Below are positions 10,809-35,221 of a stretch of 49,698 nucleotides of DNA, in pieces. The DNA lies in NCBI GenBank assembly GCA_020719165.1, contig DYQT01000002.1, positions 1 through 49,698 on the forward strand, given 5' to 3'. The DNA comes from Draconibacterium orientale (GTDB lineage: Bacteria; Bacteroidota; Bacteroidia; Bacteroidales; FEN-979). The position numbers were made by a program, and so were the translations under genes. Positions within the stretch are counted from its first letter, which is position 1, and each line of letters starts with the position of its first letter. The notes beneath the pieces are model-generated. The model did not search any database, was not told the DNA's origin, and saw nothing but the letters and a program-made list of their open reading frames with translations.

Positions 10809-11123
10809 TTATCCTTCCAAATCCAGGCGAAGTTGGTTTGGGTTTTTCCGAATAGAATCCTTCAGCAAAACATACAATTCATCCTTTTCCAGAGTCAAGG
10901 TCTTAAGTTTTGATTTTGCGTCAGTTATCTCCGCTTCTTTCGATTCGATCGAATTTACAATACGTTGAACCTCAATTTGTTTTAATTTCTCCTCTTCATT
11001 GGTGTAAAGTCCAGCTTTTCTGATGGAAGGAATAACCTCGTGTGTAATCCATCTTTTGAATGCTTTAGCCTCTGGTTTTGTGGAAGATAGAATCAAGGAA
11101 TATAAACCAAACTCATTTATAGT
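10809..11123 (-). pseudogene. Bro-N domain gene stump (C-terminal part of the domain plus a coiled-coil tail)
   Basis: The frame translates as TINEFGLYSLILSSTKPEAKAFKRWITHEVIPSIRKAGLY, matching the end of Bro-N / antirepressor N domains. The N-terminal ~70 aa of the domain are missing. The frame is closed by a TGA inside hairpin 11119-11152, and no ATG start is present. Confidence 0.6.
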
Positions 11124-11152
11124 TCAGGTCTTCCGTTTTTGACCTGAACTAT
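11119..11152. other. 12-bp hairpin at the Bro-N truncation point
   Basis: ATAGTTCAGGTC (11119-11130) pairs with GACCTGAACTAT (11141-11152) across a 10-nt loop. Confidence 0.8.
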
Positions 11153-11252
11153 CAAGTTTTTGAATTTCTGTTCTCATTTCTCTTTGTTTTTTAAGTGTTT
11201 ATAAATTATGATATGGCAAAGATATATAATTATTGAATTAAAAAACAATTAT

Positions 11253-11507
11253 TTATAAATTTTGCCCGATCAGCCAAAAAAACCGTACCCGTTCATTTAC
11301 CTCCAGGGGTTCATATTTGTAGCCCTGGGAAATGAGAAATTTGGTGAGGCCACCTTCAGGCCAGGTTGGTTCGGGCCAAAAGTCGGTGATCATCTCATTT
11401 ATTTCGTTGGTTGAAAGTTTCAGCCATGCCTCCGGTACTGTTTGCACTGGCGGGAACTTGCTGCGAAATGATTCGAAGATTTGTTCAAACTCGGTTTTCT
11501 CGTTCAT
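11253..11507 (-). CDS. Hypothetical protein B2 (fourth gene of the SD-rich operon)
   Basis: 84 aa. The start overlaps the upstream stop (ATGA), and GAGGAGG lies 9 nt upstream. Confidence 0.65.
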   Translation of the reverse strand: MNEKTEFEQIFESFRSKFPPVQTVPEAWLKLSTNEINEMITDFWPEPTWPEGGLTKFLISQGYKYEPLEVNERVRFFWLIGQNL

Positions 11508-11761
11508 TGCGTTTTCCCTCCTCTTTGAGTTAAAGAGTCAAGCAATCGGCGAAAATCGCACATCAGGCTAAAAAACCGCTTGTCGATATATTCAACTTCG
11601 TTATCCATTTGTGCCAGGTAAAAAACGCCATCGATCAGCGTGGTTTTGTTGCATTGTAAACTGTCTGTGAGTATTTCCAATGCATCTGATAATGCTGGAG
11701 TAATTTCAATACCATTCACGATGACGGTTTGGGTTTCGGGGTTATTGTTTTCATGGATCAT
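11504..11761 (-). CDS. Hypothetical protein A2 (paralogue of 12045..12308)
   Basis: 85 aa. Shares TV.I.GI.IT..L.DAL..L.D and FF......RLL..L....GGK with A1. AAGGAGG lies 6 nt upstream. Confidence 0.65.
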   Translation of the reverse strand: MIHENNNPETQTVIVNGIEITPALSDALEILTDSLQCNKTTLIDGVFYLAQMDNEVEYIDKRFFSLMCDFRRLLDSLTQRGGKTQ

Positions 11762-12048
11762 TTCGGGCCTCCTTTTACTTTTACATTTTTATTGTTAACC
11801 GGTTTGAGTTGCGGCGCCAGAATGTTTTGCGCCAGTTTTAGTACATCGTTGCCATACCAGGCAGGCGTGCGCCACACGGTGATGCACACATCGGTTACCG
11901 GGTCGTGGATGGTGATAAACTCATCGCCGCTGTCGGCGTAGGAATGAAGAGTGGCATTGGTTCTGAAATGAACATCTTCCATTTGCTGGATCCATCCGCA
12001 CACGATCATGTCCATGGCGGTACGCGGGTTGAGTGAACTTTGTTTCAT
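11758..12048 (-). CDS. Hypothetical protein B1
   Basis: 96 aa, with ATGA overlaps at both ends and GGGAGG 6 nt upstream. Confidence 0.65.
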   Translation of the reverse strand: MKQSSLNPRTAMDMIVCGWIQQMEDVHFRTNATLHSYADSGDEFITIHDPVTDVCITVWRTPAWYGNDVLKLAQNILAPQLKPVNNKNVKVKGGPK

Positions 12049-12308
12049 CCTTTGCCTCCCTTCTGTTTGCTGAGTTCCTTCAGAAGTCGGTAAAGGTTGG
12101 CGAGGATAGCGAAGAATTCGCTGTCAAACGTTTCAATATCAGCAACCGAATCCTTCAGTGAAATAATGTGCAATGAAGTTTCTGCAACGAAATGCAACCC
12201 TTCCGGACCGTGATCGTCGCGAAGCGATACTAAAGCATCAATAAGGTTTTCTGTAATGGTAATTCCGCCGATGGTTACCGGCGTAAGGCAATCTTGTTGT
12301 TTTGCCAT
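12045..12308 (-). CDS. Hypothetical protein A1
   Basis: 87 aa, first gene of the operon, with AGGAGG 8 nt upstream of the ATG. Confidence 0.65.
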   Translation of the reverse strand: MAKQQDCLTPVTIGGITITENLIDALVSLRDDHGPEGLHFVAETSLHIISLKDSVADIETFDSEFFAILANLYRLLKELSKQKGGKG

Positions 12309-12326
12309 TGTGGGTACCTCCTAATG

Positions 12327-12396
12327 GAAAAATCCCAAGTCTTGCTCGGTTCGAGGAACCGTCCGACCCTCGCGGGTGCGGAAGACTTGGGATTTC
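12327..12396 (-). promoter_or_regulatory. Structured 5' leader: three-way junction closed by a 14-bp stem followed by U5, just before the SD
   Basis: AAATCCCAAGTCTT (12330-12343) pairs with AAGACTTGGGATTT (12382-12395). Two inner hairpins read on the minus strand as ACCC-GCGA-GGGU (GNRA loop) and CGGUUC-CUC-GAACCG. UUUUU then the AGGAGG SD follow. Confidence 0.6.
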
Positions 12397-12442
12397 TCCT
12401 ATATAGAAAGTGAAAGCTCATTGTAACCTCGATTTAGCACTG

Positions 12443-12472
12443 CAAATATACAATGCTAAACGACAATGTCAA
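12443..12472 (-). promoter_or_regulatory. Host-type promoter (TTGACA-N16-TATATTTG) for the four-gene operon
   Basis: On the minus strand, TTGACA lies at 12467-12472 and TATATTTG (the TAnnTTTG -7 consensus) at 12443-12450. Confidence 0.5.
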
Positions 12473-12553
12473 TGGTCTAATGGATATTTTTAAAATTAAT
12501 CATAAATGATTTGGTAAAATTACAGCTTGATAATTAACAAATCAATAGCATTT

Positions 12554-13066
12554 TTAGGTTATTTTTAATAAGCCAATCAAAGCAGAATAGAGTTCATTTG
12601 TTTTTTTGCCTGTTTTTAATATGATTGTCAGGTCATGTTCTAAGTATTTGAATGAGATATATAGCATTGATTGATTCTTTTTTGAAGCTCCTATTGCAGC
12701 ACCTGCAATCAAACCAATGCCTCCCGTAAGTAAACCACCAACAATGGCACCAGTTGCAGTTTTCCCCACAGACCTTGAACTCTTTTCTTCCAAGCTTATG
12801 TCAATAATATCCTCAGATTTAACTGGAATACGCTTTAATTTACTCCCATCAACAAATAATAGGTTAAACAGTTTTAATGTAGTATCGACTTCAATATTAA
12901 TCGTTTTTGGTAAAGGAAGTTCAGGATGTCCTCCTTGGTAATCAATTGATGAAAATCTTTGAACAACTGAAGTAAGTGCTCCTTTACTTTCAGATTTGTT
13001 TTGCGAATTTATGCCAGCTATTAATATAATAATAGCGATACCAATAAAAAGAATCATCCATCCCAT
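12554..13066 (-). CDS. Membrane protein (N-terminal TM helix, C-terminal glycine-zipper helix); possible exclusion/moron function
   Basis: 170 aa, with MGWMILFIGIAIIILIAGI at the N-terminus and GAIVGGLLTGGIGLIAGAAIGA near the C-terminus. Confidence 0.6.
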   Translation of the reverse strand: MGWMILFIGIAIIILIAGINSQNKSESKGALTSVVQRFSSIDYQGGHPELPLPKTINIEVDTTLKLFNLLFVDGSKLKRIPVKSEDIIDISLEEKSSRSVGKTATGAIVGGLLTGGIGLIAGAAIGASKKNQSMLYISFKYLEHDLTIILKTGKKTNELYSALIGLLKIT

Positions 13067-34894: not shown

Positions 34895-34979
34895 CGGTTT
34901 GTTCTGTTACTTTACCGGCGATGCGTTGATGTCCGAACAGTTCTACGACTGCATTTAATTCGAGTTTTTCAGTGTTCAT
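34788..34979 (-). CDS. Hypothetical protein
   Basis: 63-aa ORF. The N-terminal part (VELFGHQRIAGKVTEQTVGSATFVRIDVP) looks protein-like. Confidence 0.5.
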   Translation of the reverse strand: MNTEKLELNAVVELFGHQRIAGKVTEQTVGSATFVRIDVPQTPREHGFSNSRSGMVRCIRRYQ

Positions 34980-35221
34980 TTTTTCTCCTTTCTTTCATTT
35001 ATTTCGTTTGTCCTGATGCACCGATAAGCCTTTACCGGGTATAAGTCATGATCTTCAGCCACCATGAAGTCGAGGCCGATGGTAAGGATGTTGCCGTTTT
35101 TGTCAACGCATAGGATCTTCTGATCCAGGCGAAACCCGCCTATTCTGGATTGCGCCTTATTTATCCATTCCCGCTTGTTATGGAAGGTGGTTATCTCTTC
35201 CACTTGAATTTCGATTGTCAT
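34976..35221 (-). CDS. Hypothetical protein
   Basis: 81-aa ORF with ATGA-type overlaps on both sides. Confidence 0.6.
   Translation of the reverse strand: MTIEIQVEEITTFHNKREWINKAQSRIGGFRLDQKILCVDKNGNILTIGLDFMVAEDHDLYPVKAYRCIRTNEINERKEKK

Follow-up and report, generated by a model that had tools for sequence, protein, structure and literature searches.

The stretch of DNA analysed here (the window) spans the whole of contig C151 (49.7 kb) of a Draconibacterium orientale metagenome-assembled genome (MAG, G000) that comprises 3.9 Mb in 520 contigs and contains 44% guanine plus cytosine (GC). Four small open reading frames (ORFs), designated A1, B1, A2 and C, lie on its minus strand between positions 12308 and 11253 and are joined by three ATGA overlaps. 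Together with a promoter and a structured leader RNA they form a cassette in which each gene is preceded by a strong Shine-Dalgarno (SD) sequence. The genes and their SD sites are as follows.

12045 to 12308, minus strand: gene A1, 87 amino acids, isoelectric point (pI) 4.9, acidic; homologues at 65% and 50% identity
11758 to 12048, minus strand: gene B1, 96 amino acids, pI 7.8, near neutral; ATGA overlap with A1
11504 to 11761, minus strand: gene A2 (A'), 85 amino acids, pI 4.5; paralogue of A1
11253 to 11507, minus strand: gene C, 84 amino acids, pI 4.6; an independent family
12322 to 12317, minus strand: SD of A1, AGGAGG, spacing of 8 to the ATG, within the 3' strand of leader helix P1
12055 to 12060, minus strand: SD of B1, GGGAGG, spacing of 6, in the last A1 codons (...QKGGKG); an equivalent site in every relative
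11768 to 11774, minus strand: SD of A2, AAGGAGG, spacing of 6, inside the tail of B1 (...KVKGGPK)
11517 to 11523, minus strand: SD of C, GAGGAGG, spacing of 9, inside the tail of A2 (...QRGGKTQ)

Genes and Shine-Dalgarno sites

The coordinates and overlaps of the four ORFs are exactly those given by an earlier reading made from the letters of the window alone (the sequence-only reading). That reading took the first and third genes to be paralogues and saw no obvious relationship between the second and fourth, its B1 and B2. Both statements hold: A1 and A2 share 30% identity (E = 4e-8), and comparison of B1 with C (the former B2) found no relationship. Substitutions between relatives are concentrated at third codon positions, showing that the genes are real and under purifying selection. 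The numbers at the first, second and third positions are 21, 18 and 48 for A1 against locus L001, and 10, 4 and 29 for C against L050.

The four strong SDs had also been read correctly; they are 6-7 nucleotides (nt) long and lie 6-9 nt before the start codons. When the window and 13 further loci were walked through by hand, every A, B and C gene proved to have AGGAGG, AAGGAGG or AGGGGG upstream at the usual spacing. In ten related loci a crude first-ATG scan finds an SD for 19 of the 24 ORFs of the module and for 6 of 165 other ORFs (Fisher p = 1e-16). The A and B proteins that have a downstream cistron end in ...(K/E)GGxx, and these codons encode the next SD. Where B is the terminal gene of the operon (L005, L042, L047), its stop codon comes 13 residues earlier and the ...(K/E)GG tail is missing, as it is from C, which is always the last cistron. 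The tail is thus present only where another cistron follows, showing that selection acts on the nucleotide motif.

Such sites are rare in the host. Upstream GGAGG was found for 36 of the 2703 ORFs of at least 150 amino acids in the genome (1.3%), in agreement with the published SD-blindness of Bacteroidia, in which the ribosomal proteins bS21, bS18 and bS6 sequester the anti-SD, the 3' tail of the 16S ribosomal RNA (rRNA) (PMC7797042). A general habit of the host of placing SDs at overlap junctions is not supported, GGAGG being present at 5 of the 193 ATGA junctions outside the cassette's contig. Within the window, a strong SD at a first start was found for just one other ORF (34976-35221) of about 59. 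A systematic scan for equally strong SDs elsewhere, which could have overturned the sequence-only reading, thus found few, and the SD usage of the cassette is exceptional for its genome.

No SD precedes the genome's rpsU or either of its rpsR copies, ruling out SD-led versions of these host genes as an internal sign of anti-SD use. The two rpsR (bS18) genes of the MAG (G000:C489 and G000:C339; L063 and L064) differ from one another, which fits an estimated MAG contamination of about 6%, or a strain mixture.

The sequence-only reading held SDs to be otherwise missing. They are rare, but a second run of small genes with ATGA overlaps lies at about 35613-34650 on the minus strand, each with an SD of its own: the start at 35221 has AAGGAGG and the one at about 34978 has AAAGGAG. 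The phage carrying the cassette apparently uses SD-plus-overlap coupling in at least one further place.

Promoter and leader RNA

The elements upstream of A1 are the following.

12443 to 12472, minus strand: promoter, TTGACA at 12472-12467, N16, then TATATT(TG)
12450 to 12443, minus strand: Bacteroidota -7 box TATATTTG (TAnnTTTG)
12309 to 12436, minus strand: 5' untranslated region (UTR), about 125-130 nt, with a putative 5' end
12404 to 12410, minus strand: 5' strand of helix P1, anti-SD CUUUCUA, paired with 12323-12317 in the minimum-free-energy fold and in the RNAalifold consensus
12317 to 12323, minus strand: 3' strand of P1, UAGGAGG, containing the A1 SD AGGAGG
12382 to 12399, minus strand: 5' strand of helix P2, GGAGAAAUCCCAAGUCUU, in the window fold and the RNAalifold consensus
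12326 to 12343, minus strand: 3' strand of P2, AAGACUUGGGAUUUUUCC, including a U5 run
12363 to 12381, minus strand: hairpin P3, with one bulge and the GNRA loop GCGA at 12373-12370
12347 to 12361, minus strand: hairpin P4, CGGUUC-CUC-GAACCG, invariant in A-type leaders

The host-type TTGACA-N16 promoter proposed earlier scores 11 of 12 in a consensus scan, and the TAnnTTTG box is situated at the same distance in all homologous loci. Transcription would probably start at about 12436. Counted from there the leader is about 125-130 nt long instead of the 70 nt first assigned to it, and its structured core extends from 12410 to 12317. A 48-codon upstream ORF (12275-12421, ATG at 12421) was considered as a leader peptide and rejected, since neither the frame nor the ATG is conserved: the ORF stops after 5 codons in L014, its ATG reads ATTG in L047, and D-type leaders have none. 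The middle of the encoded peptide is unconserved while the RNA pairs are conserved.

The window leader alone folds at -57 kcal/mol (z = -5.2). The three-way junction and GNRA loop described in the sequence-only reading are present in this fold, but that reading had missed a fourth, outer helix (P1), which pairs the SD of A1. RNAalifold applied to an unbiased MAFFT alignment of ten leaders gives the same four-helix structure with 8 compensated pairs. Two covariance models, R1 and R2, were built from leader alignments and match the window at 12306-12443 with 124-129 bits. The search for further leaders used DNA patterns in metagenome and viral collections and covered 151 genomes of the order and 23 of another family; 17 distinct copies were collected. 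A loose P4 pattern produced 23 chance matches in viral contigs, which the covariance model threw out. No part of the window matches Rfam 15 at gathering thresholds; below threshold, the leader comes closest to dauA, with 17 bits where 45 are required (E = 3.5).

In the 17 copies, as aligned to the model, 96.1% of cells are paired and both sides have changed in 19 of 34 pairs, in accord with the expectation that the leader stem is conserved in homologues. All five measures exceed all 500 shuffles, and sliding the partners by 1-3 columns lowers the pairing to 39-59%. Every helix covaries, P1 included. P1 (helix 1) is 94.5% paired and has both-side changes in 3 of 7 pairs, occurring as UCUA:UAGG in A-type leaders, CUCCAU:AUGGAG in L060, UCCAA:UUGGA in L057 and CUACA:UGUAG in L059 and L062. 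P2 (helices 2 and 3) is 94-98% paired, with 6 pairs changed on both sides. P3 (helix 4) has such changes in 6 of 8 pairs, and its loop remains of the GNRA class in all copies (GCGA, GUGA, GUAA or GCAA). In D-type leaders P4 reads CAGYUU...ARCUG instead, 4 of its 6 pairs being changed on both sides. Almost no variation is seen in AUAGGRGAAA and the junction CAA. The leader is a real, conserved and uncatalogued RNA motif of a known functional kind, the SD-sequestering leader: the SD is paired to an upstream anti-SD, and the pairing is kept by covariation.

The predicted occlusion of the SD is strong. For the window leader, the SD core is predicted to be unpaired with a probability of no more than 0.005 at 10 to 37 °C, compared with 0.23 when the upstream region is shuffled. 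Of 16 leaders, 12 stay below 0.02 at each of 10, 25 and 37 °C, compared with about 0.3 for shuffled upstream sequence. Freeing the SD is calculated to cost 5.3 kcal/mol in the window and 4.6-8.0 kcal/mol over the leaders, and duplexes between the SDs and the anti-SD core are worth -7.3 to -11.5 kcal/mol, so that a free 16S tail could displace P1.

A weak relative of the leader (32 bits) is found at L061:1501-1645 (G080:C187:10788-10932), where the same stem, GNRA hairpin and second hairpin are followed by U7. Neither an SD nor an ORF lies behind it, and a full leader-D cassette lies 2.3 kb downstream. Possibly the junction exists here in a terminator-type or free-standing form.

Relatives, cargo and encoded proteins

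Families A, B and C were searched separately and their genomic contexts were fetched. A and B always occur together. The pair stands alone in L005-L010, L042 and L047/L049, is followed by C in L011/L018, L012/L021, L013, L014, L044, L051 and L054, and is followed by A' and C in the window, L001-L004 and L050, the only loci in which A2 was found. C is also found by itself next to an integrase; it then has no SD and follows another structured leader, which in L053:3890-3995 (also L052) consists of CCCCGGTAC...GTACCGGGG and then ATTTTT. The A-B-A'-B' scheme of the sequence-only reading has to be given up, since its B2 belongs to the separate family C and the cassette is modular.

The same promoter and leader precede a further orphan family, D, in the Bacteroidales MAGs G080 and G156 (three copies) and in the viral contigs L058 and L065. 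D proteins have 59-86 amino acids and a pI of about 4.1; their genes stand alone behind the leader or after a gene for a 109-amino-acid protein that is possibly A-like (a weak match). The presence of the same leader before unrelated D cargo shows it to be a portable expression element of morons instead of an operator dedicated to A-B. About 500 nt of non-coding DNA lie behind the D cassettes (L057:1900-2330; L059, L060, L062) and contain repeated TTGCACGAAT and TGCGCACGAAT-like words, followed by a conserved protein of 164-188 amino acids. This stretch may serve as a control region, or it may mark the end of a mobile element.

Phage morons are autonomous promoter-gene-terminator units situated between phage modules. 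The cassette has its own conserved promoter, terminators follow it in L005, L014, L042 and L047, and its presence, content and position vary. It lies either after the lysis genes, before an antirepressor and the tape-measure gene, or at a prophage end beside an integrase. A lipoprotein or membrane moron usually precedes it, and an antirepressor gene (Bro-N, KilA-N or P22_AR_N) is often directly downstream, though L014 has none beside the cassette.

Relatives were retrieved only from Bacteroidota MAGs, IMG/VR viral contigs and unassigned metagenome contigs, the MAGs being labelled Bacteroidetes, Bacteroidota, Bacteroidales or Prolixibacteraceae and coming from stratified lakes. The composition of the cassette is ordinary (45.5% GC, compared with 42.7% for the window) and does not support a foreign origin. 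The promoter, too, is of the Bacteroidota type, and a recent import from an SD-using lineage is not supported. What survives of the small-protein module under conditional control that the sequence-only reading envisaged is a self-contained moron with a conserved, conditional-looking leader; the terminator and the repeated gene pair do not.

The neighbourhood of the cassette, and the region behind it in relatives, contain the following.

10809 to 11177, minus strand: broken Bro-N/antirepressor gene, with Bro-N and PHROG antirepressor matches
12554 to 13066, minus strand: 170-amino-acid membrane protein, phrog_37056, upstream of the cassette
L001:5050-5200, L011:3775-3945, L012:3765-3950 and L013:1095-1200: promoter and leader of the antirepressor gene in relatives

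Compared with the intact 173-amino-acid genes of L050, L011 and L054, the broken Bro-N gene lacks about 43 codons, deleted in frame after MRTEIQK, and has a TGA at 11126-11124 where the relatives read TGG (Trp). In place of the 170-amino-acid membrane protein, relatives have a different lipoprotein, DUF4468. A conserved promoter of its own, TTGACTTTG...TGTATATGCAA, also precedes their antirepressor gene downstream of the cassette, together with a conserved leader in which a T-run comes after a long-range stem, GTGATAGCCCC...GGGGGGCTATCC. This looks like a second uncatalogued leader element, and it is absent from the window.

None of A1, B1, A2 and C has a match in Pfam, PHROGs, NCBIfam or the PDB sequences. 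AlphaFold2 models A1 as an N-terminal beta-hairpin and three helices (predicted local distance difference test, pLDDT, of 72) and B1 with an alpha-beta-beta-beta-alpha topology (pLDDT 63); Foldseek found nothing significant for either in the PDB or BFVD. Several assignments were tried and rejected. A ribbon-helix-helix or Arc-like immI repressor finds no support for A, whose model shows a beta-hairpin and long helices and for which there is no PDB or Pfam match. A dsRBD, HicA or SRP9/14-like RNA binder was considered for B on its topology and on Foldseek matches that are insignificant (E of at least 0.02, template modelling score 0.3-0.4, pLDDT 63). For C, a SUFU- or SUKH-like immunity protein was suggested by a lone PDB match with E = 0.13. 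A type II toxin-antitoxin pair A-B has neither family similarity (Pfam, PHROG, NCBIfam, PDB sequences) nor a significant fold match. Family C comprises 20 clusters at 90% identity and about 100 representatives at 50%; no Pfam domain was found in its distant relatives, two long matches (P0077, P0095) being spurious hits to repeat proteins. The products of A, B, C and D are small, mostly acidic orphan proteins, and are presumed to be accessory factors that target the host or competing elements. Small, acidic, moron-borne proteins are compatible with anti-defence, exclusion or regulatory roles.

Expression of the cassette and its place among known systems

The reading favoured here, with a probability of about 0.6, is that the cassette is a mobile moron of temperate Bacteroidales phages, consisting of promoter, leader and small genes, whose expression is gated at translation. 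The TAnnTTTG host-type promoter would produce a messenger RNA (mRNA) with a 5' UTR of about 125 nt, which would fold into the four-helix RNA, its long stem P2 carrying the GNRA hairpin P3 and the second hairpin P4. The outer helix P1 would close the structure by pairing the CUUCUA-type anti-SD with the SD of the first gene, leaving the first cistron closed to ribosomes by default. Once that cistron is translated, the later ones would be read by coupling through the ATGA overlaps and the SDs in the last codons of the preceding genes. The cassette would be read by ribosomes with a free 16S tail, or while the tail is free, and the tail itself could displace P1. Reading by tail-free ribosomes is implied by the conservation of the SDs in hosts whose ribosomes normally sequester the anti-SD.

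A bolder proposal, possible but doubtful, makes the leader a sensor of ribosome state. It would block SD-independent initiation at open A-rich sites, so that only ribosomes with a released tail, lacking bS21 or bS18 or remodelled in infection or stress, would invade P1 and translate. The internal SDs would then hold the same class of ribosome on the message. In Flavobacterium johnsoniae, loss of bS21 gives ribosomes this ability, and the SD-led rpsU mRNA is translated by them (PMC9976891, PMC13000453, PMC13000457).

Several observations count against translational gating by P1. The GGAG core is only partly occluded in the D-type leaders of L057, L059 and L062 (unpaired probability 0.25-0.39), and in L058 the D gene follows the first gene without an SD. 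Because the final pairing counts were made on alignments fitted to the model, they lean towards the structure. The SD-less rpsU and rpsR genes give no internal sign that the host ever uses SD pairing. Neither this MAG nor the three related MAGs G122, G080 and G156 contain a 16S rRNA gene from which the anti-SD of the host could be read. Confidence in the AlphaFold models is modest (pLDDT 72 for A1, 63 for B1), and P2 with the U5 run of the window could still terminate some transcripts.

The last point leads to the attenuator suggested by the sequence-only reading, in which the three-way junction and U-run form a conditional intrinsic terminator at about 12327-12331 whose read-through is regulated. 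In the window and its close relatives UUUUU or UUUUUU does come after a stable stem, a consensus scan picks out a short sub-hairpin with a T-run at 12349-12335, and the weak relative L061 has the same junction and U7 with neither SD nor ORF behind. However, the U-run belongs to the 3' strand of P2, and other copies have it interrupted or lost: it reads UUUCUCC in L018, UUUCUU in L044 and L047 and, in distant copies, UUUCCC (L059, L062) or CUUCUUCC (L057). Its U's pair with GGRGAAA (GGAGAAA in the window), and U-to-C changes, which turn G-U into G-C pairs, are not avoided. The covarying P1, which encloses the stem and uses the SD, would be needless for a terminator. Attenuation therefore appears unlikely. 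An inert primary transcript in the style of the type I toxin mRNAs (tisB, zorO, hok), whose locked SD would be activated by 5' processing or a standby site because the proteins are harmful if mistimed, is improbable, although the strong and stable predicted occlusion, the very small products and the autonomy of a prophage-borne cassette resemble it. No antisense RNA or promoter was seen in the scan, which covered 11000-12700; the products are acidic and soluble-looking instead of hydrophobic membrane peptides, with nothing to suggest toxicity; and unrelated cargo is served by the same leader.

That unrelated cargo also bears on a protein-binding translational operator, in which a phage or host protein, possibly a product of the cassette, would bind the junction or AUAGGRGAAA/P4 and set the equilibrium of P1. 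AUAGGRGAAA, the A-type P4 stem and the junction CAA are invariant beyond the needs of pairing. The topology predicted for B is common among RNA-binding proteins, and its weak fold matches include SRP9/14, dsRBD and YfiA. However, these matches are not significant, the B model is of low confidence, and the leader stands before D alone, without A or B, which makes autoregulation by the cargo unlikely; the operator as a whole has a small probability. Very improbable, with little in its favour, is a metabolite riboswitch or RNA thermometer, in which the junction is an aptamer or P1 melts with temperature to expose the SD. Three-way-junction aptamers with an SD-controlling closing helix are a known design, for example the adenine add riboswitch. 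The leader, however, has few conserved unpaired junction nucleotides (CAA and a few bases), a long and rigid P2 and no Rfam match, and its cargo consists of orphan phage proteins of several unrelated families and not of metabolic or transport genes. The thermometer, also raised by the sequence-only reading, is contradicted in silico: the SD is predicted to stay paired, its unpaired probability showing no rise between 10 and 37 °C.

Bacteroidia are the standard example of bacteria with ribosomes that ignore SDs, and to our knowledge the sole well-studied exception is the gene of the ribosomal protein that hides the anti-SD. Two to four strong SDs that persist over considerable divergence, with codons added to proteins to encode them and the first SD locked in a covarying helix, are difficult to account for if SD pairing never operates in these hosts. 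If the leader does sense ribosome state, the cassettes would be the first mobile elements to exploit the pool of "specialized ribosomes" of Bacteroidia, and this pool would exist and matter in Bacteroidales, beyond the autoregulation of rpsU. The leader of about 130 nt offers a compact natural reporter of when Bacteroidales ribosomes expose their anti-SD. The gains also include an uncatalogued, well-supported RNA motif and four orphan families (A, B, C and D) as candidates for phage-host or phage-phage interaction.

Among known systems, phage morons and the immI region of P22 (arc/mnt/ant) resemble the cassette in having their own promoter, in the terminator found in relatives, in variable content and position, and in the antirepressor that is often downstream. 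However, no similarity of A, B or C to Arc, Mnt or any repressor was found, the cassette of the window is intact while its antirepressor gene is broken, and in L014 there is no neighbouring antirepressor. SD-sequestering leaders (the add riboswitch, the ROSE and fourU thermometers, tisB and zorO) share the pyrimidine-rich upstream anti-SD that pairs with the SD and closes a larger domain. The leader described here differs from them in having no Rfam match, no ligand-type conservation and no predicted melting up to 37 °C. Its host, moreover, does not normally use SDs, so that hiding one means something else.

The SD-led rpsU (bS21) mRNA of Flavobacteriales is also similar in carrying a rare, strongly conserved SD in SD-blind Bacteroidia (PMC7797042, PMC9976891, PMC13000453, PMC13000457). 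Its expression would hinge on a free 16S 3' tail, as is proposed for the cassette. Autoregulation of rpsU was not found in Bacteroidales (PMC9976891), the order to which the host of the cassette belongs. In contrast to rpsU, which is a ribosomal gene with one extended pairing of up to 13 bp, the cassette is a phage accessory operon with two to four SDs of 6-7 nt, the first of which is locked in a conserved helix.

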